A DNA stretch of 64,000 bases from Centroscyllium fabricii. Lineage: Eukaryota. Made by a program: the position numbers and the translations under genes. Under the pieces are notes generated by a model, which saw only the letters and a program-made list of their open reading frames with translations, did no database searches and was not told the DNA's origin. Location of the stretch: NCBI GenBank assembly GCA_051313645.2, contig JBNRSN020000058.1, positions 1,116,001 through 1,180,000 on the forward strand, read 5' to 3'. This document shows, one piece after another, positions 2,768 through 62,024 of the stretch; position 1 is the first letter of the stretch; every line of letters starts with the position of its first letter.

Positions 2768-3388
2768 GGTGAGGAATTTAATCTCCAGTCCTTGATGGTT
2801 GAAAAAGGCGGGTTGAGAGCGGGGATGGGGGGGGTCTCCAGGGCAGTGGCACTAGGCCGCAGAGAGGAGGGATCTTGTGGGGGGGCAGCCAGAGGAGCGG
2901 GGGGTAGAAACCAATCTGGGAGACGGGAGCAGCACAGCGGAGGGGTTGAGTGAAGATATGGGGCCAGGGTTGATCAGGGTGATCGGAAGCCTGGGGCTGG
3001 AAGAAATTGGAGGACTCCTGGGAGATCTCCGATCACGGGGGAGATCTCCGATCACAGGGGAGTGGGTTAGGCGGGGACGCCGAATCCAGGAGGTAAGTGT
3101 AAAGGCACTTACCTCCTGCTTCCAGCAATCCACGCCTTGCATTAGCTGGCAGATTTCATGAGGCCTGCAAAACCCGACCAGCTAAAGTTAAATTCAAATG
3201 GAGGTAAAAATGCCTCATTATAATATTTAAATAGATGACCCACTCCTGGGAGCGGGTTGGTCCCTGCCCTTCCGTCCCACTTCTGTTAAAACTCGAAGCG
3301 GGTGGATTCTAGTCGAGATTTAGATTTTTAACACTTTATCTTCCCACATGGCTCCAACCCACCTGTTTTTTAGGTTAAACTTCCCCCC
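2768..3388. mobile_element. Degenerate non-autonomous TIR element (MITE-like, family C)
   Basis: GC-rich island in AT-rich intron. Imperfect inverted ends GGTGAGGAATTTAATC ... GGTTAAACTTCCCCCC. Internal duplicated palindrome GGAGATCTCC and a 13-bp perfect hairpin at 3087-3118. Confidence 0.6.
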
Positions 3389-13748: not shown

Positions 13749-14429
<681 letters not shown>

Positions 14430-31800: not shown

Positions 31801-31909
31801 GCTAATTTGAAGATTAAGTATAACTTTAAAATTATTTAATAACATTCTAATACATAATATTATTTACTTAAATATCTTTGGTCACATTGACCAAACTGCA
31901 ATACAGCTA

Positions 31910-33758: not shown

Positions 33759-33780
33759 TGTGTGTGTGTGTGTGTGTGTG
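33759..33780. repeat. (TG)n microsatellite within a TG-rich low-complexity tract
   Basis: Directly visible. Confidence 0.9.
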
Positions 33781-37100: not shown

Positions 37101-37509
37101 AAGACTGATACAAAATATTTGTTCAGCGTTTTTACCATCTCCATGTTCCCCACCATTAATTTCCCGGTCTCATCCTCTAAGGGACCAACATTTACTTTAG
37201 CCATCCTTTTTCTTTTTATATAACTATAGAAACTCTTGCTATCTGCTTTTATATTTTTTGCTAATTTACTTTCATAATCTATCTTCCCTTTCTTAATCAA
37301 TCTTTTAGTTATTTTTTGCTGTCTTTTAAATGCTTCCCAATCTTCTATCCTCCCACTAGATTTGGCTACCTTATATGCCCTTGTTTTTAGTCGGATACTA
37401 TCCTTTATTACTTTACTTAGCCACGGATGGCTGTCTTTTCTTTTACACCCGTTTTTCATCAGTGGAATATATTTTTCTTGAAAGTTGTAAAATAACTCCT
37501 TGAATGTAC

Positions 37510-37731
37510 ACCACCCAAAGACATGCAGGTTAGGTCAATTGGAGATACTAAAAATTGCCTATGAATATGTGTGTGAGATAAAGTTCTTAGAGTTGGGGGT
37601 GTCGGGGGATATGGGGAGAGGGCAGGAGGGGAGTGCTGGGTTTGGATGATCAGCCATGATCTCGTCAAAATGGTGGAGCAGGCTCAAAGGGCCAAATGGC
37701 CTACTCTTGCTCCTATCTTCTGTGTGTTTCT
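37510..37731 (+). mobile_element. 5'-truncated SINE (V-domain end plus CR1 tail) inserted in CR1 ORF2
   Basis: CCAAAGACATGCAGGTTAGGT resembles the V-domain of the 38441 SINE. Ends in GATCAGCCATGATCTC...ATGGCCTACTCTTGCTCCTAT, the CR1 tail seen at 45160 and 63564. Confidence 0.75.
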
Positions 37732-38440
37732 GTGGTCATGTACTGTCTTATCCTTTAATCTATTTCCCCAGTCCACTCTAATCAATTCTGCTCTCATACC
37801 TTCATAGTCTCCTTTATTTAAGCTCAGTACGCTTGTTTGAGATCCAACCCTCTCACCCTCTAATTGAATTTGGAATTCAACCATGTTATGATCACTCATT
37901 CCAAGGGGATCTTTTACTTGGACATTTTTTATTAATCCTGTCACATTACACAGGACCAGATCTAAGATTGCTTGCCCCCTGGTTGGTTCAGTTACATACT
38001 GCTCAAGGAACCCATCCCTAATACACTCAATGAACTCTTCCTCAAGGCTGCCCTGCCAAATTTGACTTGTCCAGTTAATATGAAAGTTAAAATCCCCCAT
38101 AATTATAGCTGTTCCCTTATTACAAGCCCCAACTATTTCCTGATTTATACTCTGACCAACAGAGTTGCAACTGTTAGGAGGCCTATAGACTATGCCCACT
38201 AGTGTTTTCTTCCCCTTATTATTCCTTATCTCTACCCAAACTGTTTCACTATCCTGATCCTTTGACCCAATATAATTTCTCTGTATTGCAGTGATTCCAT
38301 CCTTTATTAATATAGCCACCCCACCTCCCCTTCCTTCTTGTCTGTCCTTCCTGATTGTTAAATACCCTTGTATGTTTAATTCCCAGTCATGGTCACCTTG
38401 CAGCCATGATTCTGTAATGGCCACAAGATCATGCCCATAT

Positions 38441-38981: not shown

Positions 38982-39843
38982 GGGCCAGAAATTCCAGTGT
39001 GCCGGTTTGTGCGGGTGCAAGGACCCAGCGGACACCTATAGCACCGCACCATCATCTCACTTTTTTAACGTCCAGACCTTCCTGTTGGCTCCGCCCCATT
39101 CCTGCGCTGTGTGGCAGTCCAGCCACGCTAGGAGCGCAGTATATGCGCTGCCGTCGTGCGTGCGTAGCAGTGATGCCCCGCCCACAGATCCCTAATTTAA
39201 ATAAAAAACGCCCCCTGCTTCACAGTCGGACTTCTGAGAGAGCAGGGACGTGAGGCCGTTATTAGGACCACGCCCACTGCTGCACCCACAGACTCGGCAG
39301 TGTGCACCACGGCCAGAGCAGCTTTTCAATGTCGGTAAGTCTTAGAGATGTTTTCTCTTAGTTTTTTAAATTAAGGAAAGAGTTAAAAATTTCTGAACTT
39401 TAAATTTAAAAATAAGCGATTTGGAATAGGTATAGCAATTGAAATTTGGATTTTTAATTAAAAAAAAAAAACTTTAACAGCAAAATTTAATGATAGCGAT
39501 CAGGCCACATTACTCCAAAACACTTAAAAAAATTAAAATTAAGGGTAAAAACGTCCATTACCTGTGTTTAGGAACGCACTGCTCTCACCAACGCACAGGT
39601 TACGACTCCTATTTTCTCGTGCAGCCCCAGGCCCAGTTGCCCACAGATTCACGCACAGAATCACACCCCAAAACATCGGGATTTTTGGGTGCAATTCTTT
39701 TGTGCGTTCCATGCTGAGGCCTCTTCTCCCTCAGCATCGGAAAGCTCCGATCCATGGGCATGCCCCGTGCGATCATCGCACGGGGTATATTGGCACCCCT
39801 CCGTGCGGTTGCAGCTACTCCCAGGCACCCGAATTTCTGGCCC
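38982..39843 (+). mobile_element. Non-autonomous TIR element (MITE, family A copy 1)
   Basis: TIRs GGGCCAGAAATTC / GAATTTCTGGCCC; ATT on both flanks (3-bp TSD); interrupts CR1, which resumes on both sides; near-collinear copy at 43123. Confidence 0.9.
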
Positions 39844-39973
39844 ATTATTTGCTCTCTAGAAACCACCCCCACTAATTAGTTAAAAGCCCTTTCTACAGCC
39901 CTAGTTATATGATTCGCCAGGATGCTGGTCCCAGCCCGGTTCAGGTGGAGCCCGTCCTAATGGAACAGCTCTC

Positions 39974-42900
39974 TTGTGAGTGTATGTGTGACTAAGTATG
40001 TATGGATGTGTTAGTATTTATGAGTGTATGTGTGACTAATTATGTGTGGATGTGTTAGTATTTGTGAGTGTGTGTGTGACTATGTATGGATGTGTTAGTA
40101 TTTGCGAGTGTGTGTGTGACTAAGTATGTATGGATGTGTTAGTATTTATGAGTGTGTGTGTGATTAGGTATGTATGGATGTGTCAGTATTTGTGAGTGTG
40201 TGTGTGACTATGTATGGATGTGTTAGTATTTATGAGGGTGTGCATGACTAATTATGGATGTGTTAGTATTTGTGAGTGTGTGTGTGACTAAGTATGGATG
40301 TGTTAGTATTTATGAGTGTGTGTGTGACTAAGTATGTGTGGATGTGTTAGTATTTGTGAGTGTGTGTGTGACTAAGTATGTACGTGTTAGTATTTATAAG
40401 TGTGTGTGTGTGACTATGTATGTATGTGTTAGTATTTATGAGTGTGTGTGACTAAGTATGTATGGATGTGTTAGTATTTGTGAGTGTGTGTGTGACTATG
40501 TATGGATATGTTAGTATTTATGAGTGTGTGCGTGACTATGTATGGATGTGTTCGTATTTGTGAGTGTGTTTGTGACTAAGTATGTGTGGATGTGTTAGTA
40601 TTTGTGAGTGCGTGTGTGACTATGTATGGATGTGTTAGTATTTGTGAGTGTGTGTGTGACTAAGTATGGATGTGTTCGTATTTCTGAGTGTGTGTGTGAC
40701 TAAGTATGTGTGGATGTGTTAGTATTTGTGAGTGTGTGTGTGACTAAATATGTATGTGTTAGTATTTATGAGTGTGTGTGTGACTATGTATGTATGTGTT
40801 AGAATTTGTGAGTGTGTGTGTGACTAAGTATGTATGTGTTAGTATTTATGAGTGTGTGTGTGACTAAGTATGTATGGATGTGTCAGTATTTGTGAGTGTG
40901 TGTGTGACTATGTATGGATGTGTTAGTATTTATGAGTGTGTGCGTGACTATGTATGGATGTGTTAGTATTTGTGAGTGTGTGTGTGACTAAGTATGTATG
41001 TGTTTGTATTTATGAGTGTGTGTGACTATGTATGGATGTGTTAGTATTTTTGAGTGTGTGTGTGACTATGTATGTATGTGTTAGTATTCATGAGTGTGTG
41101 TGTGACTATGTATGGATGTGTTAGTATTTGTGAGTGTGACTAAGTATGTATGTGTTAGTATTTGTGAGTGTGTGTGTGACTATGTATGGATGTGTCAGTA
41201 TTTATGAGTGTCTGTGTGACAATGTATGTATGGATGTGTTAGTATTTGTGAGTGTGTCTGTGGCTATGTATGGATGTGTTAGTATTTGTGAGTGTGACTA
41301 AGTATGTATGGATGTGTTAGTATTTGTGAGTGTGTGTGTGGCTATGTATGCACGTGTTAGTATTTGTGAGTGTGACTAAGTATGTATGGATGTGTTAGTA
41401 TTTGTGAGTGTGTGTGTGGCTATGTATGGATGTGTTAGTATTTGTGAGTGTGACTAAGTATGTATGTGTTAGTATTTGTGAGTGTGTGTGTGACTATGTA
41501 TGGATGTGTCAGTATTTCTGAGTGTCTGTGTGACAATGTATGTATGGGTTAGTATTTATAAGTGTGTGTGTGTGACTACGTATGTATGGATGTGTTAGTA
41601 TTTGTGAGTGTGTGTGTGACTATGTATGGATGTGTTATTATTTATGAGTGTGTGTGTGACTAAGTATGTATGTATGTGTTAGTATTTGTGAGTGTGTGTG
41701 TGACTATGTATGTATGTGTTAGTATTTATGAGTGTGTGTGTGACTATGTATGGATATGTTAGTATTTGAGTGTGTGTGTGACTAAGTATGTATGTATGTG
41801 TTAGTATTTGTGAGTGTGACTATGTATGTATGTGTTAGTATTTATGAGTGTGTGTGTGACTATGTATGGATATGTTAGTATTTGAGTGTGTGTGTGACTC
41901 AGTATGTGTGGATGTGTTAGTATTTGTGAGTGTGTGTGTAACTATCTATGGATGTGTTAGTATTTGTGAGTGTGTGTGTGACTAAGTATGTATGTATGTG
42001 TTAGTATTTGTGAGTGTGTGACTAATTCTGCATGTGTTAGTATTTATGAGTGTGTGTGTGACTATGTAATGATGTGTTAGTATTTGTGAGTGTGTGTGAC
42101 TGAGTATGTATGGATGTGTTAGTATTTGTGAATGTGTGTTTGACTATGTATGGATGTGTTACTATTTGTGAGTGTGTGTGTGACTAAGTATGTGTTAGTA
42201 TTTATGAGTGTGTGTGTGACTATGTAATGATGTGTTAGTATTTGTGAGTGTGTGTGTGACTATGTATGTATGGATGTGTTAGTATTTGTGAATGTGTGTT
42301 TGACTATGTATGGATATGTTAGTATTTGAGTGTGTGTGTGACTATGTATGTATGTATTAGTATTTGTGAGTGTGTGTGTGACAAAGTATGTGTTAGTATT
42401 TATGAGTGTGTGTGTGACTATGTATAGATTTGTTAGTATTTGTGAGTGTGCGTGTGACTGTATGTATGTGTTACTATTTGTGAGTGCGTGTGTGACTATG
42501 TATGTATGTGTCAGTATTTGTGTGTGTGTGTGACTAAGTATGTATGGATGTGTCAGTATTTGTGAGTGTGTGTGACTATGTATGGATGTGTTAGTATTTG
42601 TGAGTGTGTGTGACTATGTATGTATGGATGTGTTAGTATTTGAGTGTGTGTGTGACTATGTATGGATGTGTTAGTATTTGTGAGTGTGTGTGACTAAGTA
42701 TGTATGGATGTGTTAGTATTTGTGAGTGTGTGTGACTATGTATGGATGTGTTAGTATTTGAGTGTGTGTGTGACTATGTATGTATGGATGTGTTAGTATT
42801 TGTGAGTGTGTGTGACTATGTATGGATGTGTTAGTATTTGTGAGTGTGTGTGACTATGTATGGATGTGTTAGTATTTGTGAGTGTGTGTGACTATGTATG

Positions 42901-43087
42901 GATGTGTTAGTATTTGTGAGTGTGTGTGATTAAGTATGTATGGATGTGTTAGTATTTGTGAGTGTGTGTGACTAAGTATGTATGTATGTGTTAGTATTTG
43001 TGAGTGTGTGTGACTAAGTATGTATGGATGTGTTAGTATTTATGAGTGTGTGTGACTAAATATGTATGGATGTGTCAGTATTTGTGA
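39974..43087. repeat. ~3.1-kb GT-rich compound satellite (unit ~36-44 bp: GAG(TG)nACTA(AG)TATGTATGGATGTGTTAGTATTTRT)
   Basis: Directly visible. Unit length varies through its TG and TATG sub-repeats. One orphan unit lies at ~35081-35128. Confidence 0.97.
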
Positions 43088-43122
43088 ATCAACGTTGGAG
43101 TTTACCTTCCATTCACTTTATT

Positions 43123-43951
43123 GGGCCAGAAATTCGGGTGTGCCGGTTGGTGCGGGTGCAAGGACCCTGCAGACACCTATAGCACCGCACCAACATCGCA
43201 CTTTTTTTACGTCCAGACCTTCCAGTTGGCTCCGCCCCGTTCCTGCGCTGCGTGGCAGTCCTGCCACGCTAGGAGCGCAGTATATGCGCTGCCGCGTGCG
43301 TGCGTAGCAGTGATGCCCCGCCCACAGATCCCTAATTTAAATAAAAAACGCCCCCTGTTTCAGAGTCGGACCTCTTAGAGAGCAGGGACGTGAGGCGCTG
43401 CACCCACAGACTCGGCAGTGAGCAGCGCGGCCAGAGCAGCTTTTCACTCGAGGTAAGTCTCAGCCATTTTTTCTCTTAGTTTTTTAACTTAACTAAATAG
43501 TTAAAAATTTCAGAACTTAAAATTTAAAAATTAACGATTTGGAATAGGTATAACAATTGAAATTCGGATTTTTAAATTAAAAAAAACACTTTAACAGCAA
43601 AATTTAATGTTAGAGATCTGGCCACGTTACTCCAAAAAATTGATAAATACTTAAAATTTAAATTAAAAAAGTCATTTTCCTTGTTTAGGAATGCACTGCT
43701 CTCACCAACGCACGGGTTATGACTCCTTTTTTCCCATGCAGCTCAGAGCCCATTTGCCCACAGATGAATGCACAGAATCACACCCAAAAACATCGGGATT
43801 TTTGGGTGCAATTCTTTTGTGCGTTCCATGCTTCTCCCTCAGCATCAGAAAGCTCCGATCCATGGGCATGCCCCTTGCGATCATCGCACGGGGCATATTG
43901 GCCCCCCTCCGTGCGGGTGCAACTGGTGCGAGGCACCCGAATTTCTGGCCC
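43123..43951 (+). mobile_element. Non-autonomous TIR element (MITE, family A copy 2)
   Basis: Perfect 18-bp TIRs GGGCCAGAAATTCGGGTG / CACCCGAATTTCTGGCCC; ATT TSD (43120-43122, 43952-43954). Confidence 0.92.
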
Positions 43952-44431
43952 ATTATATAACAATACTTTGTTACTCTTAGCATGATTGTATTAATAATAG
44001 AGAACGATTATGATGGTAAGGGGCACTTTAACACAATACTTTGGCGATGGGGTAAGATCTTGATCCTGCATTACAGCAGTGACGACACTTCAAAAGTATT
44101 TAATTGGCTGGAAATCGCTTTGAAACGTCATCAGGTCGTTATAGGTGCTATATAAATGCAATCTTGTCTTTCTTTTTCTTCTGTTGATAAGGCAAACTTT
44201 AGCTCAGTTGAATTTTGCCGGACACTGATAACAACGAAACGCACAGATAGACGACATGTAGCCCTGGATGATTACATTGGAGCATACAGACCGAGCGTGG
44301 TCTCGCTTTACAGAAACGATGGCATTGCCTGCCTGCATTTTGGTGAACCGAAGGTTACATGGCACACTACCAAAGGTTGCCATGGCATTCCTCGGTAATT
44401 TCCCTCAGGGTACATTTTTGTTTGAAGAGGT

Positions 44432-45252
44432 TTGAAATGTGAGGTTATCCACTTTGGGGGCAAAAACAGGAGGGCAGATTACTACTTAAATGGCAATAGA
44501 TTGGGAGATGGGGAGGTGCAGAGAGACCTGGGTGTTCTTGTGCACCAGTCGCTGAAGGCGAGCACGCAGGTGCAGCAGGCGGTTGGGAAGGCAAATGGTA
44601 TGTTGGCCTTCATATCAAGAGGGTTCGAGTATCGGAATAAGGATACCTTACTGCAGCTGTACAAGGCACTGGTGAGACCACACCTCGAGTATTGTGTACA
44701 GTTCTGGTCGCCTCGCCTGAGGAAGGATGTTCTTGCCATGGAAGGAGTGCAGCGGCGTTTCACCAGGCTGATTCCTGGAATGGCAGGAATGACCTACGAG
44801 GAGAGATTGTGTAGTCTGGGCTTGTACTCGTTGGAGTTTAGAAGATTGAGAGGCGATCTCATTGAGACGTATAAAATTCTGAAAGGTCTGGACAGGTTAG
44901 ATTCAGAGAGAATGTTTCCAATGGCGGGGGAGTCCAGAACCAGGGGCCACAGTCTAAGGATAAGGGGTAAACCATTTAGGACAGACATGAGGAAGAATTT
45001 CTTCACTCAGAGAGTGGTGGGCCTGTGGAATTCCCTGCCACAGAGGGCGGTGGAGGCCAGTTCATTAAACATATTCAAGAGGGAATTGGATATATTTCTT
45101 CAAGCTAAAGGGATTAAAGGTTATGGAGAAAAGGCGGGGACGGGGTACTAGCTTGCTAAAGATCAGCCATGATCTCATTGAATGGCGGAGCAGGCTGAAG
45201 GGCTGAATGGCCTACTCCTGCTCCTATCTTCTATGATTCTATGATTCTATGA
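44432..45252 (+). mobile_element. CR1 LINE 3' fragment (young, open ORF2 C-terminus)
   Basis: KCEVIHFG...LVRPHLEYCVQFWSP...RGDLIETYKIL...GIKGYGEKAG*, short 3' UTR and (ATTCTATG)n tail. Confidence 0.95.
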
Positions 45253-47088
45253 GCCCTCTCGATTTTTAAATTGCCGTCAGTATGTGAGGATCTGAACCCC
45301 ACCCAAAACACTTTCAATTATAAAGGTGTTCACAGCAAAGCTGTTTGCGTTACAGGTATGAACTATCGGGCCTACTTTGATGGACCAATAAGAGTGACAC
45401 TAAGTTGCCCCAGTGCAACCTAACAAGAACCAGCGCAAAAAGTGTCCTTATTAGGGCAGCACTAATATAATCAACAGACATATGATCCAATCAAACTAAA
45501 CTTTGTCAAAAATAAGCAACAAAGTCCCAACAGAACCAAAAGGAATTTCACCAACTAAACCATAATTAGCAGTGTCTCTGTACCCTGTGGTGCCAGCGGT
45601 CACCTCAGGCTCAAGCGTTCCCGGAATCTCGGGGTTTCAATGGTCATGGAATCATCCCATTTTCCGGTGTCCCTAACTGAGTGAATTCACGAATTTTGCA
45701 ATTCCTGGAGTGAAATGGCGAACTTGCGACGTTCAGCGCTCGCACGGTCTCGTTTATTGTTTTAGTAAAATAATGTTTTGATAACACAATTGAGTTGGCA
45801 GAACCCGGTGACACTGTGCTAACACAATTAATTCTGGGCAATCAAGAACGTTAAATAAAAATTCGATACAACAACATTTATCTAAATAAACATAGAGCAC
45901 ACACCCGAAAGTTATATAAATAAGCCTAGAACTTGGCCGAAAAAATTACCTTAATAAATAAACAGCAAGTACTCCAAAGCAGGAAACTAGAATTTAAGCA
46001 ATATATCTTAAATCGGCATTACCCAGAGAAAACCTATCATAAATTAGATTTAGATGATTGCGTTTCTATCGTGTAATGTCCTACATCGACATCTAATCAT
46101 GTTTATTTAAATCATACCATGTCCAAGTCAATGATTATAGTTTTTTCAACAATTAAATGCGTATTTTGTAATTGTCCAGTCCAGGCGACAGTAAGTTGTT
46201 GCGCTACACTTTGTATCTGAGTTTTGGTTCATTTTTCTCCTTCCCCGACACACTATTCTCTCACTCTTTTCAAAACGACACCAACTCTTTGGTAATGAAA
46301 GGAAAGAAAACGACTAATTAGAGAAGCGTTTAATGTGCCCACTTGTTGCTCATTACAATAGAGAAGCAACGCTAACTCGTTTATTTATACCCTTACTTGG
46401 AGCACATTTGAAGCCTCCACATTTTCAAATACACAACATTCGTGTAATTACACAAAATATAAAAAAGCAGGTTTTCTGATATGTTGCATCAAGTGTTCCC
46501 ATCAATATTGTCAGATCAGGCAGCAATAACGGGAATGAGAGAAAGGAAACTCCGTTTGGCAGAGTCTGTTCTTGTGCTCTTAAAATACAACAAATCCCAG
46601 GTGCACCACAACGTTTTATACTAACGCTGTTATAAGGCTGCTTATCACAATTTATAGATAATGCATCAATTCTAATTTGTTTTTCTCTGAATTAAACTGT
46701 CCTTTGCAATATTACCACCTGGAACATTGCTGGATACGGAACAGTTGCTACGAGCCTCCTTTAATCGCGCACCAGAAAAAAATACAAAACTGAAGGCATA
46801 TTATTAATGGATTATACTAATGAGCTGGCGTCTTCCTTTCTTTTCTTGAACAATTTGAAACTTTTCATAAACCGATTGTCACAATCCCACCTATTTGTCA
46901 ATTTCAAGCCAAATAATAACTTTCAGCATGAATATTTCTTTTAATGTTGCGGTTGATGACATAATAACTGTTAAACATTAAACTAGAAATTCCTTATCAT
47001 TAGTGACGAATAATTAAAAGGAAGAGCGATGGAGCATATTTCAAATGCGTTTGAAACTGAGTGTGCAAGATTGCTGTTTATTCCAAGG

Positions 47089-47107
47089 CAGTCAGTAGGG
47101 GGCGCTC
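47089..47107 (+). promoter_or_regulatory. CTCF-like motif
   Basis: CAGTCAGTAGGGGGCGCTC is close to the CCASYAGRKGGCRC consensus. Motif evidence only. Confidence 0.4.
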
Positions 47108-48218
47108 TCTTAACACTGCTGTGAACTATCTCCGCTCCAGCGAACAGCCATCTGGAAAAGATAGGCTCGTGGGACATATGGTTTGGGATAAATGCAACCA
47201 ACAAAAAGGAAATATATCCTGGCCTTTATGACAGATACGAAAAACTGACGTTCTGTTTAACTTATTTATCATCAGCTGTTTATCTTAAGTTGTTGATTTT
47301 GCAAAAATATTGATGGAAAGCAAATTGCACAACTTTTTTAGGCCAATTTAAGCAGTGCACTCTAGCAATCAAACAGAACTTTGTTTAGAGAAAATTATTG
47401 ATGGAAAAAAATTGCCCGGTAGCAGAGCAATTGAGTCATTGACTTCACGCCTTTGTGGTTAAAGCATATGATACATAGACTAGCACAGACACATGACTTG
47501 CAATGGATGGAAAACAAGGACAATGAATCCTTGGGTATAGAGAACTCAGCAGTATTTGGCCACGTAAGTCCTCAGGTATTGAAGGTGGCTTTGTAGGAAA
47601 AACATGGGAAAATAGAGACTGCGATGTATCGAAGCTTGATTAATGCTAGTTTAATAGTGAGGCCTGTTGTTATGCTAATTACTAGAAACCAATCTAATTT
47701 TTCAAAATATGCTTGTAATTTCTTTCCTTTTATCATCTCAAAAGTGATTTGCTCCAACTTTTTATGACAATCAAAGTAGTTTCCTACATTACAACAGTGA
47801 CTACATTTCAAAATGACTTCATTGGTTATAAAGCGCTTTGGGACAACCTTAGATCGTGCATCATCTGTTTGGTGCTTCCGCACAGTTACACGACAAAGGG
47901 ATTGCTACCGCAAACCCACATGCTACCAATTGATGGCACAGTATGTTGGCATGGTCCCATAGTAACTCTAAGAGTATTGCCTCACCCATACCTCCTATCA
48001 TAGAGTCAGTCTACTAAGGATGAGGGGCGTGATATGTATATATTCATAACCTTGTATTTATTCAGAAGTTACTATGCTTCATAGTTGGTGTGTCTTAAGC
48101 TTGAGGATGTGTCATCATCTGTTGGGTTAAAATTATACCCCCAAATCCTTATTGTAACCCCATTGTGGATCCTGGAAAATATGTTAAATGCCTCCCTCAG
48201 AAATTCATGATACCTAGC

Positions 48219-49282
48219 AACATCAATGGGAATTGGGGGGAAAACTCTCCACTGGCTGGAGTCATACCTAGCACAAAGGAAGATGGTTGTAGTGATTGAA
48301 GGTCAATCATCTCAGCCTCAGGACATCGCTGCAGGAGTTCCTCAGGGCAGTGTCTTAGCCCCAACCATCTTCAGCTGCTTCATCAATGACCTTCCCTCCA
48401 ACATAAGGTCAGAAATGGGGATGTTCGTTGATGACTGCATAGTGTTCAGTGCCATTCACAAATTCTCAGGTATTGAAGCAGTCCATGCCCACATGCAACA
48501 GGACCTGGATGATGTTCAGACTTGGGCTGATAAGTGACAATTAACATTCAGACCACTGAAGTGCGAGGCAATGACTATCTCCAACAGGCAAGAGTTTAAC
48601 CACCACCCCATGACATTCAACGGCATTACGATCACCGAATCCTCCATCATCAACATCCTGGAGGTCACCATTGACCAGAAACTTAACTGGACCAGCCACA
48701 TAAATACTGTGGCAACAAGAGCAGGTCAGAGGCTAGGTATTCTGCAGTGAGTGTCTCACTACCTGACTCCCCAAAGCCTTTCTACCATCTTCAAGACACA
48801 AGTAAGGAGTGTGATGGAATACTCTCCATTTGCCTGGATGAGTGCAGCTCGAACAATCCAGGACAAAGCAGCCTGCTTGACTCATCCACCACCTTAAACA
48901 TTCACTTCCTCCACCACTGGCGTACCGTGGCTGCAGTGTGTACCATCTACAAGATGCACTGCAGCAACTCACCAAGGCTTCTTCGGCAGCACCTCCCAAA
49001 CCCGTGACCTCTTCCACCTAGAAGGACAAGGGCAGCAGGCACATGGGAACACCACCACCTCCACATTCTCCTCCAAGTCACATGCCATCCTGACTTAGAA
49101 GTATATCGCCGATCCTTCATCGTCACTGGGTCAAAATCCTGGAACTCCCTCCCTAACAGCACTGTGTGAGTACCTTCAGCACACGGACTGCAGCGGTTCA
49201 AGAAGGCGGCTCACCACCACCTTCTCAAGGGCAATGAGGTGTGGGCAATAAATGCTTGCCTTGCCAGCGACGCCCACATCCC
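48219..49282 (+). mobile_element. Degenerate CR1-group LINE 3' part (second family)
   Basis: GKTLHWLESYLAQRKMVVV...AGVPQGSVLAPTIFSCFINDL...FVDD, with stops and frameshifts. Its 3' tail is shared with the SINE at 57797. Confidence 0.9.
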
Positions 49283-50185
49283 ATAAACGAATAATAAAAA
49301 AACCTATTTCTTTAAGACTTGTTCCTTTACAGTTTGAAAGGATGAATTGACGTCACTTCCATTTCCAATAACTGCAGCATCAAGAATTTAAATAAGTTCA
49401 ATGAAAAGATTGTTTCTTTTATGAATTCTCTATCATGATGGTAAATATTCATACAAGGCAAATATACCATCGGAATAAATATTCTGGGTGCAAATAATAT
49501 CCACCTTCCTCCATTTCCTTCAATTTTTTATACAATCAGGAAATTGATGATGCCCAATTTGTTTCCTTATGAATAATAGAAATCATCCCTTTATGTTGAT
49601 ATACTTCTCTTAAACCTGATATGCTATTTACAAAATTAAACTGCAGTGTCTCTAACTCAACCAAATCCAAATCTGAATAAAGAGCAAAACCTTTCCGATA
49701 TGTTACCAGGTGGGGTTGGAGTACTGATGACCACCTGTGAAAAGTCAGTATGTCAGAGACTTAGTTAATACACTTGGGCATATCACTTAAATTCAGTAAA
49801 CTGGAACCAATAGCATTTCTGGTTAAATATGTGCACTTGATCTTTTTTTCCAACACAACAAAAAATGAATACAACCCTAACTTTTTTCCCTCAAGTTCTA
49901 CCTGTGGTCTTTCTGGAATTGTTTTCTTGTGGTCCACGTCAGTTGAGAACTTTTTGAAAGCATTTGACCCATCATTCGATCTTGCTTCTTCTGAAATTAA
50001 AGCCAACCCATTCTTACTTTTACTGGAAGACAGGGTGATACCGAATTTCTCCCCCTTTGTCTTTCTTGGCCGAAAGAAGCTTTGTTATTTTGCATACAGT
50101 CTTGATTTCTCTCTCTTTGCTGATGGTTCCACTTCTACTGTATATCCAGTTTTTTTGACATTTCTTGTACTACCTTTAACTTCCT

Positions 50186-51125
50186 TCAATTCAATTCAAT
50201 TCAATTCAATTTATTGTCATTGTAAAGTGAACATACACAAAACAACGAAATGCAAACATGCAATCTCCCAAATTATCAAAATGTCCGTTAGTCCCAGTCT
50301 GATCCATTCCATCCCACCAGGACCACCCGGCGCTGCAGCCACGATGCGCCCGGTGCCCAGCCACGCAGGCCCTGGCGCTCCGGCCACGCAGCTCCCGGCC
50401 TCAAACGGCCTCGCAGCTCCCGGCCCCCGACGGCCTCGCAGCTCTCAGCGCCCGACGGCCTCGCAGCTCCCGGCCCCCGACGGCCTCGCAGCTCTCAGCG
50501 CCCGACGGCCTCGCAGCTCCCGGCCCCCGATGGCCACGCAGTTCCCGGCCCACGATGGCCTCGCAGCTCCCGGCCCCAAACGGCCTCGCAGCTCCCGGCC
50601 CCCGACGGCCTCGCAGCTCTCGGTGCCCGACGGCCTCGCAGCTCCCGGCCCCCGACGACCTCGCAGCTCTCAGCGCCCAACGGCCTCGCAGCTCCCGGCC
50701 CCCGACGGCCTCGCAGCTCTCAGCGCCCGACGGCCTCGCAGCTCCCGGCCCCCGACGGCCTCGCAGCTCTCAGCGCCCGATGGCCTCGCAGCTCCCGGCC
50801 CCCGACGGCCTCGCAGCTCCCGGCCCCCGACGGCCTTGCAGCTCCCGGCCCCCGACGACCTCGCAGCTCCCGGCCCCCGACGGCCTCGGAGGTCTCAGCG
50901 CCCGACGGCCTCGCAGCTCCCGGCCCTCGACGGCCTCGCAGCTCTCAGCACCCCAGCGCTCCGACCACGACGGCTTGGTGAGTCAACACCAGTGCTCCGA
51001 TTGAGGAGCACCAGTGCTCTACTCCACTGACCCCGCCGTCCTCTCCAGGAACAGTGCGGGAACCAGGGACACCATCACTTCGGGAGACGCAAAGCCGCTG
51101 CGTCTATGCGCGCCGCCATCTTGTC
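50186..51125 (-). mobile_element. Non-autonomous Rex/Babar-like retroposon carrying an internal minisatellite
   Basis: (TTGAA)n tail after AATAAA at the left end; CAAGATGGCGGCG-type head at the right end; GC-rich body; no RT coding sequence. Confidence 0.55.
50380..50955. repeat. 25-bp GC-rich minisatellite (CGGCCTCGCAGCTCCCGGCCCCCGA and variant ...CTCTCAGCGCCCGA), ~23 copies
   Basis: 25-bp period is visible (50406, 50431, 50456...). It accounts for the repetitive part of ORF 49774-51030. Confidence 0.95.
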
Positions 51126-51229
51126 TCCGCATCTTATTCTTATTCCTCTGTACCTTTTCCATTCTTTATGGATCCTGCCATCATTCAGGTTCAATCTTTA
51201 ATTTCTTTTACCTGCTTCCATGTTCTGCC

Positions 51230-52940
51230 ATTCAGGACCTTAAACCCTTTTCTCCTGCCCCATCTTTCCTCACCTCCAACAACAAGTGCGACAAGTTCAG
51301 GGATTTCTTTGCCATTAAGATTGAAACCATCCATTCTGTTATTTCTGCTGCATCGCTCCCTTCCCCAAGCCCACCAAGCCAAGCTTCCCCCTCGGTTCTT
51401 CCGTGCTGAGCCCTGAACGCGCAGCTTTCTCTAGTTTCGCTCCTATCTTCCCTCATACACTCACCAAGTTCATCTTCTCCATGAGACTCACCTTCTTCTT
51501 TATCACCCCTATTCCCACAAAACTGCTGACCACCCAACTTTCCTTCCTGGCCCCCATGCTAGCTGATATTGTAAATGGTGCCCTCTCATCGGGTACTATA
51601 CCCCTCCCTTTCAAATCTGCCGTCATCACCTCCCTCCTCCAAAAACCCACTCTTGCCCCCTCAGTCCTTGCAAGCTACCACCACATCTCCAACCTCCCTT
51701 TCCTCTCTAATGTTATTGAATGTGTTGTCGCCTCCCAAATCTGTGCTCATCTTTCCTGCAACTCCGTGTTTGAACCCCTCCAATCAGATTTCTGCCCCGC
51801 CGCAGCACGGAAACGGCCCTAATCATAGTCACAAATGACATGCTCTGTGACTGTGACTGTACTGAACTGTCCCTCTCTGCAGCCTTTGCCACGGTTGAAC
51901 ACACCATCCTTCTCCAATGCTCCAATGTTGCCCAGCTGAGTGGGACTGCCCTTGCCATTTTCACTCTTCCCAATCCAGTCATTGCCAAAGAATCTCCTGC
52001 AATGGCTTCTATTCCTGCCCCCACACTGTTACTTTCAGAGTATTCCAAGGCTCTATCATTAGCCCCCTCCTATTATCTATATTATGCCCCTTGGCAACAT
52101 CATCCGAAGACATGAAGTCAGGTTCCACATGTATGCTTATGACACCCAGCTCTATCTCATCACCAACTCTCTTGACCCCCTCTACTGCCTCTATGTTGTC
52201 AGACTGCTTATCCAACATCCAGTCATTGATGAGCCACAATTTCCTCCAATTAAACATTGGGAAGAACAAAGCCATTGTCTTTGGTCTTCACCACAAACTC
52301 CGTTCCCTTGCCATCAATTCCACCCCCTCTCTGGCCACAGTCTCAGGCTGACCTAGACTCTTCAAAACATTGGTGTCCTATTTGACGCTGAACTGAGCTT
52401 CTGACCCCATATCCTCTCCATTACGAAGACCAATTACTTCCACCTCCATAATATTACCTGTCTCTGCCCCTACCTCAGCATATCTGCAACTGAAACCCTC
52501 ATCCATGCTTTTGTTATCTCCAGAGTCATTCTAATGATCTCCTGGCCAGCCTCTCATCTTCCATCCTCCACAAACTTGAGCTCATCCACAATTCTGCTGC
52601 CCATATCCTAACCCACATCCATCAGCCCTGTGCTTGTTGACATACATTGGCCATTAATGCCTTGATTTTAAAATTCTCATCCTTGTGTTGAAATCCCTCC
52701 ACGACCTCACTCCTCCCTATCTCTGTAAACACCTTCAGCCCTGATAAACTCCAAGTGCTCCGCATTCCTCCAACTTTGGCTTCTTGTGCATCACCCACTC
52801 TCTTCACCCCATCATTGGTGGCTGTGCCTTAATTTCTAGAATTCTCTTCTTAAAATCTCTCCAGATTGCCACTTTTCTCTCCTCCTTTAAGACTCTTTGT
52901 AAAACCTACCTCTGTGACCAACCTTATACTCATCCATCCT
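51230..52940 (+). mobile_element. Degenerate L2-type LINE (RT region and 3' end)
   Basis: Fragments PIPTKLL, ASYHHISNLPFLS, LSAAFATVEH, VFQGSIISPLL, FHMYAYDTQLY, NFLQLNIGK spread across frames; pyrimidine-rich sense strand. The tail appears to continue at 53772-53877 after the MITE. Confidence 0.88.
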
Positions 52941-52943
52941 CAT

Positions 52944-53771
52944 GGGCCAGAATTTCCTCTGCTCCAGAGGAGCTGCACATGCACGGAGGGGGGTCCGAAA
53001 TGCCCTGTGGGTGTGCAGCACGGGGGATGCCCACGAATGGGAATTTCCTCTGCTGAGGGAGAAGGGCCCTCAGCATCAAACGCAGGAGTGAGTTGCACCC
53101 AGAATTTGCAATCCAAAAGGGTGATTTTTGGAGAGTGATTCTGTGAGCAACTGGCCCACAAGCTGCACCCGGGAAAACCAGTAGTAAACTCGTGCATGAG
53201 GGACAAGATTTAGTTACTAAAGCAGGTAAGTTAATTTTTTAACTTTAATTTTAATTTTTTACAGTTTTGGGGAGTAATGTGGCCAGATTGGTAGTGTAAA
53301 ATTTTTGTTAAAGTTTTAAAAAAAAATTTACAAATCCGATTTTAAGTTAATTTACCTGTTTCAAATCGCTAATTTTTAAAGTTAAATTTCTGAAATTTTT
53401 AACTATCTAGCTATTAAAAAATCTAAGAGGAAAAAATGGCAGACTTACCTTGCGTTTCTTCCTCTGAGAAGCTGCTCTGCCCGCGCTGCTCCCCGCCGAG
53501 TCTGTGAGTGCACTTCCCTGCTCTCACAAAGGTCCGACTCGGGATCTGTGCGCATTTTTAAATTTAAATTAGCGATCTGGGGGCGTTTTTAATTTAAATT
53601 TGGGATCTGTGGGCGGAGCATACACTGCGCACCTAGCGTGGCTGGACTGCCACGCAGCGCAGGAACGGGGAGGAAAGTCAGGGAGCAACTTCTGTGCGAT
53701 GTTGGTGCGTGCGATAGGTGTCCGCAGGGTCCTAGCGCACGCACCAACCTGCACAGAGGAAAACCTGGCCC
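52944..53771 (-). mobile_element. Non-autonomous TIR element (family A relative, inverted orientation)
   Basis: Ends GGGCCAGAATTTCCTCTG / CAGAGGAAAACCTGGCCC; internal blocks match the 38982/43123 copies on the opposite strand; flanks CAT / ATT (imperfect TSD). Confidence 0.85.
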
Positions 53772-54173
53772 ATTAAATATCTTCATTGGTTCAGTGTCAA
53801 TTTTTGTCAGATTGCACTCCTGTGAAGCGCCTTGGGACATTTTCCTATGTTAAAGGTGCTATATAAATGCAAGTTGTTGGTGCCAGTGACCCATTTTTCT
53901 TCTTTCCATTTTCTGCAGTGAAGAGCTCTCTCAGCTTATTACTCAGCTTAAAATAAAGGTATTTTATTCCCACAACAAAACTACTACTCAATTCTGGGTC
54001 TCTCATTAGCAAATTGCCACCTATTTTGCTATTTCTGCTTGCATGCACTGTATTTTACTTTCAGTATTATTAGACAGTGGCCACTTCCAATATCTGCATC
54101 TCTGTATCATCTGACATTGTTCATAGCTTTTTCCCATCCCCTGTTTACTGCAATGTAACCAATCAGTTTCTTG

Positions 54174-54495
54174 ATTCAAGATTCAAGATTCAAGATTATT
54201 TCATTGCCATATGTAACTGGTACAATGGAATGCTTACTCCCCACTCACTCCCACAATATAAGCATAAGCATAAAAAGCAAAAGTAAAAAACAAGTATAAA
54301 TATAGAAAAATAATAAGCGAATAAGCGAACAAGTGCGGTTAGCAGTTAAGTAGGCGCACTACCTGTGGGTAGAAACTGTTTTTGAACCTGGTGGTCCTGG
54401 TCCGGATGCTGCAGTACCGACGGCCGGACTGCAGGAGGGAGAACAGATCGTGCCCAGGGTGATTGGTGTCCTTGATGATGATACTACTGTGCGAT
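54174..54495 (-). mobile_element. Rex1/Babar LINE 3' fragment
   Basis: IIKDTNHPGHDLFSLLQSGRRYCSIRTRTTRFKNSFYPQVVRLLN C-terminal signature and (TCTTGAA)n tail. Confidence 0.85.
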
Positions 54496-54602
54496 TTCCA
54501 TATCATAGTATGTGCATAAAGTGTACCTCCTGTCACTAGGTTTGTGCATGGTATGAAACTGGGCAAAATGCTCCCCAGCTTCATTAATTGTATCTAAACC
54601 TT

Positions 54603-55051
54603 ACATAGAAATATAGACACTTAGAAGATAGGAGCAGGAGTAGGCCATTCGGCCCCTCGAGCCTGCTCTGCCATTCGATGAGGTCATGGCTGATCATCCA
54701 AATTTAGTACCCCGGACCTGCCTTCTCCCCATATCCCTTGATACCTTTCAGCTCTAAGAAATATATCTAACTCCTTTTTGAATATATTCAATGACTTGGC
54801 CTCAACTACATTCTGTGGTAGAGAATTCCACAGGTTCACCACTCTCTGGGTGAAGACATTCTTCCTCATCTCTGTCCTAAATGGCTTACCCCTTCTTAGA
54901 CTATGACCCCTGGTTCTGGACTATCCGACCATCGGGAACATTCTTCCTGCATCTAGTTTGTCCAGACCTGTCAGAATTTCATAAGTTTCGATGAGATCCC
55001 CTCTCATTCTTCTAAACTCCAGCGAGTATATGCCCAGTCGACCCAATCTCT
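54603..55051 (-). mobile_element. CR1 LINE 3' fragment
   Basis: MRKNVFTQRVVNLWNSLPQ...; 3' UTR matches the other CR1 copies in the window. Confidence 0.92.
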
Positions 55052-57796
55052 TGAATATGATTGGTCATATTTCTTTCAAGTATACTTTCCAGTTGTCATT
55101 TTCATATCATTCCAAGTTAAAGTAAGATTTTTAATATATTATATATTGATATCCTGTGGTTGCACCCAGTAAATCATGAGCAGTATTACATGATGTTTTG
55201 GAAGATTATTCATGGTGCCTTGTAACATAAAATATGCCATTTCCTCTTCTTCATTTCCTTCTGTAGGTGCAAACATTATACTATTGTCATCTTTGCATGG
55301 TAAGTCTTGACTCTCATAGTGTGAAGTCTACCTGACTGTGTTCCATTCTCTAATTGTTGCTGCACCTGGTAATGAGGCAGAGTCATACTTTGTCTATCAT
55401 TTCTGTCAGAATACAATATTTAATGTTGTCATTTTTTGCTCCTGGTTAGTGTATTTTACTTATGCCAAGGATGGTAGATCTACACCCTCTCTTTCACTGG
55501 TTAATTCACTTTTGAAGGATATAAGCATTCCTGCACATGATTTGAAAGTCATACATTGTGTTGTAGGAGTCTGTGATCTCCTAACAAATAAATCAGCCAA
55601 CTCGGAGGAGTAACTGCAAAACTGATCTTTTTATTTCAAACTCCAAAAACATTCCAACAACAAAAGCCTGCGTAATGCGCAATGACATCACCAACTGGTC
55701 TGTTTTCCCTCCCTCTTAAAGGGGAGGGGAAACCTGTAAGTTAAAGGGGAGTTTATATGCAATTATTATGTACGGTCATTTATTCCCCGATGTGGAAATG
55801 CCACAGTGTCTTTAATTTTATATAATACTTCAGTATTATATTATATATACTTATTTAGGAAAACTTACAACAATTTGGAAAGCAGAGAAGTAGTGTTGAT
55901 TGGAGTGTACAGTTTCTCTGCAGTACATGCTGATAAGCTGGAATTTGCCAAACTGGGGCACTATAGTACCACCTCTGGTGGGAGGGTGTAATTACAGTGT
56001 GACATATTTACATAGGTAATCTCAATTATAAATGTGGTCATTGGATTTTATAGAGAGAAAAAGATGACAGGAAATGTAAGTTAAAGTAAGATTTTTAATA
56101 TATTATATATTGATATCCTGTGGTTGCACCCAGTAAATCAGACAATATGGTCTCTCTGTTACCTGACTGCTGTATTTGTGTTGATGTTTTTTCTCTCTCT
56201 CTTCTCTGGTTCTGTCTAGCTTTTCTTTCCTGCTTTTGTTCCCTTAGCTCTTCATTTTGCCTCTCTCTCTGTCTTTTCCTTTTCTTTTGTTTGGGGTGGG
56301 AGATGATGCTTAGTTTAAAGTAATGTAGCAGGGGAAGGATCCACCAACAGCTGCTGGCTGCATTTAAGGAGGGGATTGTTTGAAAAATGCAGCTGACAGT
56401 GGCTCCATTCCCATTCCCTCCTCCAATCACGAACCCTTCATTCTCATTGTGTCCCATATTCATTTACCTTCTCACTATCCATTTCTCTTCCTACCACACC
56501 GTCACTCCCATCACTATCCTTACCTCCTCCATTTAAATGACCCACTCAACCCCTGTATTCTCCACTCCTTTTTGTTTTGTTCTACAACTCACTCCCCCCT
56601 CAACCCCGCCTTAAGCCACGTGTTCCACTCTTACTCACTCTCTCCAAGGGCAAGTGTTGAGACTCTAGTGGGCCCCTCACCTTCAACCAGTTTCTCTCTC
56701 CATTTCCTCTTCTCATCACATCCTTCCTTCCTATCTGTTTTCCTCAGAGGTTTTGTTTACTTTCAAAGTTCAACTACTTTTAAAGAAATCAAATCGGAAT
56801 GAGGAAAGAAACTGCCTGTATGCCTGCCATGTTTTCGACTTGTGTCCTTCTCTCTATCCCTTTGTCTCATAACTGTTAGACATTAGAATCTCTGCCACAC
56901 AAGTGCCATTAGCATTGAGCTTTACTAACTGTCAACAACAACAGCACAGGTAAAGGTAATTAGCAAAATTCAACTGCCAATTTTATTGAGTTGAAGTAAC
57001 GGCACCTGAAGAAAGGCATGCTTACTCCACCTGCCCCAGTTTCTTTTTCATTTTCTAAAGTTTAATCAATGAAACAAAGAAAAACTTGCATTTATAGAGC
57101 AGCTTACACCATCTCAGGACACCTCAAAATGCTTTACAGCCAATTAAGTACTTCTGAAGTGTCATCATTGTTGTTATGTTGTAATTACATTATGCACACA
57201 AAAGAAAGGCTACAACAGGTAAGTAACCAGAATCCTGTCATTTTTATCTTTCTCTCTCACACACAACCTCTCTGTGTATTTAAAAAAAATGCTTGATTTT
57301 GAATTTTATCTCAGTAAAACTTTTGATGTTTGTCCTCTAGGACTTCTTCAAATAATGCTGTAAACCTTTTGAACAGAAACTGCTAGAAGCTAAAGAAAAA
57401 GCATTCTTCAGTATGGCCGACTGAATGGTACCCCTGGGAAATTATGTGCACTGCATATTGCTCAGTCTGCACAATCCAAGTTCAACTGCAAGCCCAGGGG
57501 TTTGGGAGAGGCTGAGACCTTCAAGCAGAAATGCTAATTTAGGATTAAAGGACACAAATGACAACTCAATGGATTAATCATGTTTTTGTGAAATATGTAA
57601 TTACATTTTTATTTTTTATTTTGGTCAAATCCTTATTTTGGATATTAGAAATTTCAACTGCTGAGAAGAAAAAAAGGCAATGGAAAAATATATTTTCAGA
57701 AGTACTTTGAGAGAATTCTGGGAATCCAGTATACATAGGAAAAAGTTAACAATTGGAAGGGGCTCAATCTCCTGGGGCTCTGCAATCTTCAGACTA

Positions 57797-59010
57797 TTAT
57801 TCATTCATGGGCTGTGGATGTTGCTGGCATGGCCAGCATTTATTGCCCATCCCGAATTGCCCTTGAGAAGGTGGTTGTGAGCTGCCTTCCTGAACCGCTG
57901 CAGTCATGAGGTGAAGGCTTATTGGGCCAGAAATTTGGGTTGGAGGCTTCCTGCGAGTGTAAGCCTCCAACCTGCACTTACCTGGCGCCGGCCGTTGAGC
58001 TGTGGGCCCGCATGGAATTCCGATGTGGGGTCTTCCTGAACTACCGGTGCGCCGCGCTCCTGTATTCCAGCAGCGAAGATAATGCGAGGGATCGTGCGGG
58101 ATCACGTGGGCTACGGAGAGCCAATCGGAGCACAGAATGCTCCATTGATAAGTTTGACAGGAAGACCTGTCAAACGTATGAATACTACAAGCCCCAAAAC
58201 CTCAGTAAATCTTCAAATAAATTTTAGAAAAAAATCAAATTTTTTAAAATAACTATCCACATAAATTAGCTATTTTAAACAAAAATTAAAATTTTTGAGA
58301 AAAATAGTTAAAGTTTTTAAAGGGGCTAAAAATAAACTTACCTTTCTTTAAAGTATTTAAATATAAAAAAAACCTGTGGAAAAATGTATTAAATTGAATT
58401 AATTCACCACTTACCTTCTGAAAACCAGTCTTTGCACATGAAAATAGGAGCCGTATCTTTTTCCATACTTACCCGCACACAGACCTGTAAATAAAAATCG
58501 GAAGTGCATTGCACACGCGCTGCCACGCACGCGTTCTGACCCCTGACCCCTTCTGTCAGGGGATCGGAAGTGCCGGTTTCGCGTGCATGCGCTGTGCATG
58601 CACAAAACTGGCATTTCGGATGGGCCTACGGGTGAGTACCCAGCACGTACTCACGCGTTGGGGCCGGAATTTCTGGGCCAATATTGTTTTTCCTAGCAGT
58701 TTGATACAACTGGGTGGCTTGCTTGGCCATTTCAGAGGGCAGTTAAGAGTCAACCACATTGCTGTGGGTCCAGAGTCACATATAGGCCAGACCAGGTAAG
58801 ATTTCCTGAAAGGATATTAGTGAACCAGATGAGGTTTTATGACAATCATGGTCACCATCACTAATACTAGCTCTTTATTCTAGATTTATTTAATTAACTT
58901 AATTTAAATTCCCCAGCTGCCCCGGTGGGATTTGAACTCATGTCTCCGGGTCATAAGTTCAGCCCTCTGAATTACTAGCCCAGTAACATAACCACTACGC
59001 TACTGTACCC
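57797..59010 (-). mobile_element. tRNA-headed SINE with CR1-group tail, split by a MITE
   Basis: Head at 59010: GGGTACAGTAGCGTAGTGG (A box) ... GAGTTCAAATCCC (B box). Tail at 57797-57903 matches 49190-49272 of the LINE. Interrupted at 57924-58679. Confidence 0.8.
57924..58679. mobile_element. Non-autonomous TIR element (MITE, family B)
   Basis: Ends GGGCCAGAAATTTGG / CCGGAATTTCTGGGCC; flanks ATT / AAT; GC-rich arms around an AT-rich core. Interior is not visibly alignable to family A. Confidence 0.8.
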
Positions 59011-59822: not shown

Positions 59823-59913
59823 GTGGTGACCCCGAATTGGAACGACTTCCAAGGAAAAAAAGCTGCCACAGGATCAAGGATCACCAGCCAAAGAACATTT
59901 TAAAACACAAAAC

Positions 59914-61721
59914 ATGGCAAGAGCAAGGAACCAAGCTCCACGAACCCAAGAACTTGGCCAGAACTTCGGACACAGACTAACTCTACCGGAGTTCTGGGAG
60001 CAATGGCCAGCGGCCTGGTTTATGTGCATCGAAACCAGCTGCCGCACACATGGCATCCAGGGGGATGACCGCTACGACCTGGTGTTCTCAGCCCTACCGC
60101 AATCGACGATCGATCGGATGTGGTCAAAAATACAGCGTGTGCCCACTACAGGCAGGTACGAATCCCTTAAGGCCGCGCTCATAATTTTTTTTACCCCCTC
60201 TCAATTCGAGCGCGACTGCCAGCTCCTTGACCTCCCCGAACTCGGGGACGCAGACCCATCGGACCTTTTAGGTCAGATGCAAGCGCTCACCGCCAATCCC
60301 GCCTCCCTGTTCCGCACCGTTTTCCTCCTCAAACTACCCCGCTCCATCAGGCCGGCCTTGGCGGCCCTCGGCCAGCGGAGCGACGACGATCTCGCTGAGG
60401 AGGCCGACAGGCTCATGGAGGCAGAGCGCACCCGCTCAACCACGTGCGACCCTAACTCTGCATCTATAGAGCGCAACCAATCGCCCCCCAGGCCTAACTT
60501 CATGCCTGAACCTAGGGCCCCGCGCCCACCCAGGCAACCACATCCCTCTAGCACCGGCTGGTGCTACTACCACACGCGGTTCGATAGTAAAGCGCACCGC
60601 TGCGTCCAGCCATGCGCATTCAAGCCACGGCCCAACTCAGCCCCCACTATGTCTGTAGGGCACACAGGAGCACTGCTCTTTGTTACAGACAGCGGCACAG
60701 GCCTCCAATTCCTCTGCGACACAGGCGCACAGCACAGCATCGTGCCAGCCTCCCCTGCAGAAACCAAACAAGGCACCCGGGGCCCGCCACTCGCAGCGGC
60801 CAACGGCTCCAATATCAAAACGTACGGCACCCGCAAGCTCACGATTATGCTCGCAAGCCACACGTACACCTGGGACTTTGTCACAGCCCAGGTCACTTCA
60901 CCCCTCCTCGGAGCAGATTTCCTCTGCGCCTACGGCCTGCTGGTCGATATGACCCGGCGCCGCTTGGTCAACATGAATAACATGTCGACCATCCCATGCT
61001 TCACAGGGCCCGCACTCCTGGTCCACGCGGCCGCCCAATGCCGTTCTCAGAACTCCGATGCCTACGGCACACTCCTAGCAGAGTTCCCCGCCCTAACCAA
61101 CCCCACGTTCACCGCCCGCCGGGCCAAACACGGGGTAGAGCATTTTATAACTACCACAGGCCCTCCCGTCCATGCCCACGCCCGTAGGCTCGACCCGGCC
61201 AAACAGGAGATCGCGCGCACCGAGTTCCGCACCATGGAGCAACTCGGTATAATCCGCCGCTCCAACAGCCCCTGGGCCTCTCCTCTCCACATAGCCCCCA
61301 AGCCGGATGGGGGTTGGCGCCCTGCAGCGAATACCGCCGCCTAAACAACGCCACTACCCCGGATAGGTACCCCGTACCCCACATCCAGGATTTTTCCGCC
61401 AGATTAGCGGGCTGCCCGATCTTCTCCAAGATCGACCTGGTGCGTGGCTACCACCAGGTTCCGGTGCACCCGGCGGACATCCCCAAAACGGCCGTTATCA
61501 CTCCCTTTGGACTCTTCGAGTTTCTCAGGATGCCCTTCGGCCTTAAAAACGCGGCCCAGGCCTTCCAGCGCCTCATGGACTCAGTCCTACGGGACTTGAA
61601 GTTCATTTTCGTCTACTTAGACGACATCCTCGTGGCCAGCACCTCCCCCCAGGAACACCTCCTGCACCTCAGGACCCTGTTCCAGTGCCTGGTCGAACAC
61701 GGCCTAATATTAAGCCCTACC
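59914..61721 (+). mobile_element. Gypsy (CsRn1-clade-like) gag-protease-RT, one frameshift, interrupted by another LTR
   Basis: Gag with Cx2Hx9Cx3C (CYYHTRFDSKAHRCVQPC); protease FLCDTGA; RT SPWASPL, YRRLN, FSKIDL, MPFGLKNA, YLDD (61614-61625). 1-nt frameshift near 61320. Coding sequence ends abruptly at 61721. Confidence 0.93.
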
Positions 61722-62024
61722 TGTCATAGATGGAATTCTCCTTTAAGGATTCCCCTTTAAATTCTGTGGCCTTTTCTCTCTTAAGGATTGAATGTACCTC
61801 ATTTACTAGTGCACATACCTGAGTGTACCTCGTTTACTATTACATGCACTGGATTGGATAGCCCTAATCAATCAAGTTAGCTTGAGCTGCTTATAAGCTT
61901 GGAGCTGGCACCAGCAAGGGGCCGGATCGTTGATGCTGATTACTATGATGTAGGTGTTCTGTTCCTGGCTGGCTGGGCCAGTCGAATTGTGTGAAGGCCC
62001 TGCTTGCAGAGGAATACTTGCTCT

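Follow-up and report, generated by a model that had tools for sequence, protein, structure and literature searches.

Mobilisation of PIF/Harbinger DNA transposons requires both a transposase and its partner protein, and excision is precise. Their non-autonomous members of the Tourist-like type, such as mPing, Harbinger3N_DR, the short Harbinger-Snek variants and Harbinger-N12A_XT, are non-coding MITEs (miniature inverted-repeat transposable elements) with short terminal inverted repeats, a 3-bp target site duplication, and transposase plus Myb-like partners (PMC2836001, PMC8437027, PMC12676858, in the portions available to us). Five elements that share these features lie in the DNA analysed here, a stretch of 64,000 nucleotides (hereafter the window) of the Centroscyllium fabricii genome (assembly GCA_051313645.2, contig JBNRSN020000058.1, positions 1,116,001 to 1,180,000). 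They carry 5' splice-site words (donors, GTAAGT) pointing inward from their arms, which the available text of the same three papers does not mention; the string "splic" is absent from PMC9179366 and PMC8437027 and appears a single time in PMC12676858. No description of this architecture was found among literature titles and the opening lines of abstracts, and Repbase or Dfam entries may describe the parental introns. The elements appear to be Harbinger MITEs of the ordinary kind, whose layout, though undescribed, can largely be explained. The reading that we favour, and regard as probable though well short of certain, is that they represent the joined ends of a convergent two-gene parent, the inward GTAAGT words being the likely donors that close each presumed promoter and untranslated first exon.

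Judged by their sequence, the elements are non-autonomous PIF/Harbinger transposons, as an earlier note on the window had proposed; the autonomous partners it had called for were recovered. In a first-look survey of the 7.2 Gb genome, the Harbinger transposase domain had 72,583 candidates and the Myb/SANT domain 50,745, which are not copy numbers. Among 20 stretches fetched around transposase matches, six contained full-length elements, 4.8-6.1 kb long and bounded at either side by GG(G/C)C(C)A(G/A)AAAT-type ends. In these elements a Pfam DDE_Tnp_4 gene and a Myb_DNA-bind_5 gene lie on opposite strands, the two being convergent and pointing into the element. Autonomous partners with common ends were found for families A and B, and for family C the transposase-side arm is clear and the Myb-side arm weak. 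Another autonomous-type Harbinger, more compact at about 2.45 kb, also has the two genes (L321:372-2822). The terminal inverted repeats are short and start with GGG or GGC, the left end of the window copy of C being degenerate, and the flanks are A(A/T)T-type 3-mers, fitting a 3-bp target site duplication. These features match those given for PIF/Harbinger elements in the part of PMC2836001 available to us, which also reports a preference for an extended target of about 15 bp in vertebrates. Both flanks were identical in 14 of 26 (A1), 4 of 16 (B), 5 of 15 (A3) and 6 of 12 (D, a clade found outside the window) copies with both ends located, and many of the non-identical pairs differed solely in the middle base. 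In a comparison covering L001-L030, L081-L110, L331-L350 and window positions 58680-58682, A(A/T)T stood on both flanks in 37 copies, with the middle base differing (ATT versus AAT) in 20 of them, even in families diverged by just 3-4%; one possible reason is that the element ends bring along 3-nt overhangs of the donor site, which mismatch repair then corrects at insertion.

Table 1. Coordinates of the elements, donor words and gene exon in the window (positions counted from the first base of the window).
Feature	Position	Strand	Remarks
A1	38982..39843	+	862 bp non-autonomous Harbinger; ATT on both flanks
A1 Myb-side inward donor, G|GTAAGT	39335..39340	+	Matches likely 5'-untranslated-region (5'-UTR) intron donor of the Myb gene
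A1 transposase-side inward donor, CAG|GTAATG	39556..39561	-	Matches likely 5'-UTR intron donor of the transposase gene
A2	43123..43951	+	87% to A1; transposase-side donor decayed
A2 Myb-side inward donor, GAG|GTAAGT	43453..43458	+	
A3	52944..53771	-	Inverted; second subfamily, 69-71% to A1/A2
A3 transposase-side inward donor, CAG|GTAAGT	53226..53231	+	Intact in 21/21 copies
A3 Myb-side inward donor, AAG|GTAAGT	53443..53448	-	Intact in 20/21 copies
B	57924..58679	+	756 bp; homology to L073-type autonomous Harbingers in both arms
B outward-pointing GTAAGT	57976..57981	-	Inside subterminal GCACTTAC[C/G] motif
B inward donors (58467, 58409, 58336)	58336..58472	-	Transposase-side arm and core
C	2768..3388	+	Older element inside an intron of the nuclear factor I gene
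C GTAAGT and ACTTAC (3093/3107)	3093..3112		Two arms of one local palindrome of about 21 bp
Nuclear factor I gene, large coding exon	13850..14381	-	Ends at genuine G|GTAAGT donor (13844)

Family A provides the most direct evidence for descent of the donors from parental genes. Its arms match both ends of full-length elements at 68-79%, the left arm of A1 corresponding to the 5' end of the Myb gene and the right arm to the 5' end of the transposase gene; the A3 subfamily has at least 35 genome matches at 94-96%. On the transposase side, G|GT(A/G)A is present at the aligned place in nine of the ten autonomous copies with a located arm, a count that leaves out nine further copies without one. In the four copies measured, the segment following this donor is 617-686 nt long and AT-rich, contains 8-19 upstream ATGs and is closed by a pyrimidine tract and CAG that precede the start codon. 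This is the anatomy expected of a 5'-UTR intron. Donor-anchored alignment to the autonomous element L063 scored above all 1000 shuffles on both the exon and the intron side of the transposase-side donor, and no shuffle of 1000 reached the score of the intron start on the Myb side. A match to the splice consensus, variation between GTAAG and GTGAG and a downstream acceptor in the parent gene, all features of 5' splice sites, were found for family A and its parents. Both donors of family A were thus likely inherited from what appear to be the first introns, in the 5' UTR, of the parental genes. These observations bear out the donor-like nature that the earlier note had assigned to the motif and, for this family, its scheme of exon-like arm, donor and intron-like core, including the CAG|GTAATG site in A1. 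Capture of a host-gene interior (Pack-type) was not found for family A, since both its arms and both intron starts match its own autonomous relatives. When four sequencing runs were aligned to L063, introns and ends were equally covered and GT..AG bounded 0 of the 15 joints listed among 53, these reads being treated as DNA.

On the Myb side, the 20 family-I autonomous ends read GTAAGT in seven cases, GTACGT in one, TTAAGT in five and GGACGG in seven. Copies with GTAAGT contain 3-11 upstream ATGs (n = 7) and those with TTAAGT 1-3 (four measured), a contrast that fits splicing of the Myb 5'-UTR segment, with loss of this splicing in some lineages. Loss of this donor (TTAAGT, GGACGG) extends to whole autonomous subgroups (L064, L073, L074, L196, L206; L156-L169), the UTR of the TTAAGT subgroup being shorter and with fewer upstream ATGs.

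Under the favoured reading, the transposase and Myb/SANT genes of the parent would converge, one at each end, and deletion of the middle would leave arm, donor, core, donor and arm. Such a MITE would retain both presumed promoters, first exons and donors, and landed copies would then decay as passengers. The two-strand symmetry would then need no special function, each arm of family A being the 5' end of one of two convergent genes.

In family B, both arms scored above all 200 shuffles against L073-type elements. The first two inward donors lie about 207 and 265 nt from the end and the GTAAGT words of L073 at 201 and 279, so that these two may likewise have been inherited from the parent. The earlier note had named, as one outcome that would undo its proposal, a tracing of all sites to ordinary intron boundaries of one parental transposase gene; such a tracing holds for family A, with two convergent genes instead of one, weakly for B, and not for C or for clades D and E.

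Several observations weigh against simple inheritance as the whole explanation. Within family A, the match to L070 on the Myb side lacks significance (92 of 1000 shuffles), a four-sequence alignment does not bring the donors into one column, the Myb-side placement varying with gaps, and GT has been lost in 12 of the 20 family-I Myb ends while the MITEs retain the perfect word, which plain inheritance does not predict. Anchored against L073, the first B donor has weak support (18 of 1000 shuffles upstream, 793 of 1000 downstream), and the innermost, third donor has no counterpart there. Over about 275 nt, the right arm of C shows homology to another autonomous family's transposase arm, yet the 30-copy consensus of this nearest family has no GT donor at the aligned place; its likely donor is a GC site, AAG|GCGAGT, with an acceptor about 95 nt on, and the perfect donor of C lies about 23 nt further in. 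The autonomous kin of D have only CAG|GTAGTT (16 of 30) together with an intron-like segment of 101 nt that lies closer to the end, and the Myb side of their 30-copy consensus lacks a donor, so that the likely donors of the kin of C and D are weaker and placed elsewhere. Clade E has inward donor words, and only one of 22 related upstream regions has a donor-like word. In L281-L310, the transposase 5' UTR of one autonomous family contains what is likely a GC-AG intron, about 95 nt long.

The words themselves are in clear local excess. GGTAAGT occurs ten times in the five elements (3,896 bp); 300 dinucleotide shuffles gave 0.28 on average and three at most, and the 60 kb of the window outside the elements contain five. 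In 40 evenly placed 9.9-kb stretches of the genome (396 kb), 39 were found against 38.5, 36.2 and 25.1 expected under Markov orders 1, 2 and 3, respectively; because the word is near expectation there, the excess is local to the elements. The excess asserted in the earlier note thus survives shuffling, its nine coordinates are all correct, and a tenth site (ACTTACC, 57976, element B) had been overlooked. The ten sites are not independent, as that note had recognised for the family-A copies: A1, A2 and A3 are one family and together count as two sites, the four in B are all on one strand, with the one at 57976 pointing outward, and the two in C belong to one palindrome in a GC-rich setting without an AT-rich core. 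Its description of donors on both strands therefore applies to family A, not to B, and in C reflects a single local palindrome; its "different families" needs qualification as well, for A and B are related through ends common to one group of autonomous elements. When each of eight MITE clades was represented once, ten GGTAAGT were counted against 0.51 expected, in four of the eight clades, in a sample biased by three clades coming from the window and by D having first been noticed in surveys that printed the motif. These counts are no unbiased census because the clades were curated by hand, automatic catalogues of terminal repeat pairs being too strict (67 hits) or noisy (174). The left boundary of C at 2768 is plausible, its genome matches beginning only around query base 220-300.

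Compatible with inheritance, and added on top of it, is a second possibility, to which we give considerably less credence: that selection on the mobile master copies of the non-autonomous lineages would favour those that retain or acquire a strong U1 site near the promoter, or a small intron. Such a site would sustain germ-line transcription from the arms, keep the arms open and make these copies better transposase substrates, the landed copies decaying neutrally. Inward donors of consensus strength occur 200-550 nt from the element ends in five clades (A-E), on both strands in A, C and D. Those of C, D and E stand where the related autonomous arms described above have none, apart from the single donor-like word for E, and where D and E interchange GTAAG and GTGAG the change agrees with the splice consensus. 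At a mean identity of 68-69%, the three inward donors of B are intact in seven of nine subfamilies and the main D donor AGGTAAGT in five of five; in four of five D subfamilies, donor, branch-like word, pyrimidine tract and CAG fall within 64-65 nt, an intron-like unit in which the donor of the reverse strand also serves as the branch-like word and pyrimidine tract. Against such selection, the nearest autonomous relatives of C, D and E are cousins only 65-75% alike, so that the true parents may be unsampled or extinct, and clades G, H and I are amplified MITEs without any GGTAAGT. A route through evasion of the human silencing hub (HUSH) is unlikely, and splice sites alone were rejected as its means, for splice sites flanking stuffer DNA gave no protection in human cells according to the available part of PMC8770142.

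Mutation of the donors bears on both levels of selection. In an alignment of 130 copies from five families, the private substitutions that fell in donor hexamers equalled expectation (31 versus 31.0), and shared substitutions, which are not independent, were fewer than expected (32 versus 49.5). A pooled deficit (63 versus 87.5 expected) was discarded, as it disappeared once private changes alone were counted. Across subfamilies at 68-71% identity, nine inward sites ranked in the top 3-58% of non-CpG windows, with a combined p of about 0.013 over sites that are not independent; an apparently strong whole-word conservation (top 2-4%) shrank under this non-CpG control. The per-site conservation that the earlier note had proposed to examine is accordingly modest between subfamilies and absent from private changes, and any constraint on donors falls on the mobile masters and not on copies already inserted. 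In several related families the donors are sharper than in the known parents, which may help these families to spread. We put forward only tentatively the still bolder idea that non-autonomous DNA transposons of this genome have time and again acquired or strengthened U1 sites close to their promoters, or even small two-way introns, not present in their coding relatives, and that gene-start-like transcription keeps the copies mobile. If true, a splicing signal would contribute in cis to the fitness of a transposon that moves by cut and paste and has no RNA stage. The idea would then explain, in a way open to test, why certain MITEs amplify beyond their parents, and would give a simple rule for designing Harbinger vectors.

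That the motif is a DNA site of the Myb/SANT partner or the transposase, donor-like by chance, is an alternative raised in the earlier note that we consider improbable for the pattern as a whole. It may explain the outward site of B at 57976, which lies in a subterminal word, GCACTTAC[C/G]CAGCGCAC, also present at the Myb-side ends of autonomous elements, and whose likeness to a donor is probably coincidental; the Myb protein is reported to bind element ends in the accessible part of PMC2836001. The inward sites, however, are absent from the arms of three autonomous families, are lost in the 12 family-I Myb ends noted above, and vary both in distance from the end and in sequence, as GT(A/G)AG. 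Least credible is the same note's orientation-independent cassette under host-level selection, in which U1 binding would make intronic insertions tolerable or exonisable: donors do face both ways in A, C and D and the AT-rich cores hold six AATAAA words against 3.4 expected (not significant), but private donor mutations at the background rate argue against it, the B sites share one strand, and strong donors added to introns are normally harmful.

The arms are presumably promoters in origin. The eight MITE representatives contain 16 GC boxes against 7.3 expected and 12 TGACAG palindromes against 2.8, with TGACGT words also in excess and no enrichment of CCAAT or ETS words; we take TGACAG to be a TALE-homeodomain word. 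TGACAG palindromes were seen in clades B, D and E (window 58140-58180; L228:3546-4376; L250:2718-3504). The U1 snRNP (small nuclear ribonucleoprotein) motif of human promoters in the Puffin model is likewise a strand-specific 5' splice-site word downstream of GC-box-rich promoter DNA (10.1101/2023.06.27.546584, as far as its available text describes it); here, by contrast, both strands of transposon arms bear the word, and CCAAT and ETS words are not enriched. Old non-autonomous lineages that are still mobile are also described for the Xenopus T2-MITEs, which belong to another superfamily (Kolobok; PMC6004289, in the part available). Splicing of the parental 5'-UTR segments is predicted. Introners too are DNA transposons with splice signals, but these lie at their own ends and the element is spliced out whole; the donors described here lie well inside the ends, where splicing would leave the arms in the RNA, and splice signals at the element ends that would permit whole removal were not found.

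Elsewhere in the window, the nuclear factor I gene has a long CpG-rich upstream region (19000-35000) in which self-comparison found nearly no repeats. Tandem arrays occupy 1337-2136 (20 bp units), 39900-43090 (about 40), 50256-51080 (25) and 62000-62600 (66-67 bp), and a short palindromic repeat family with 60-68 bp arms was seen at 4988-5153, 28767-28874 and 31909-32123. Positions 35484-38439, 44426-45240, 59830-61760 and 62567-63650 presumably represent long interspersed nuclear element (LINE) reverse-transcriptase fragments and a long terminal repeat (LTR) retrotransposon gag-pol-like stretch.

In its plain form, the favoured reading lets gene layout account for the striking pattern: thousands of insertions would scatter promoter-plus-donor stubs through the genome in both orientations, as raw material for new first exons.

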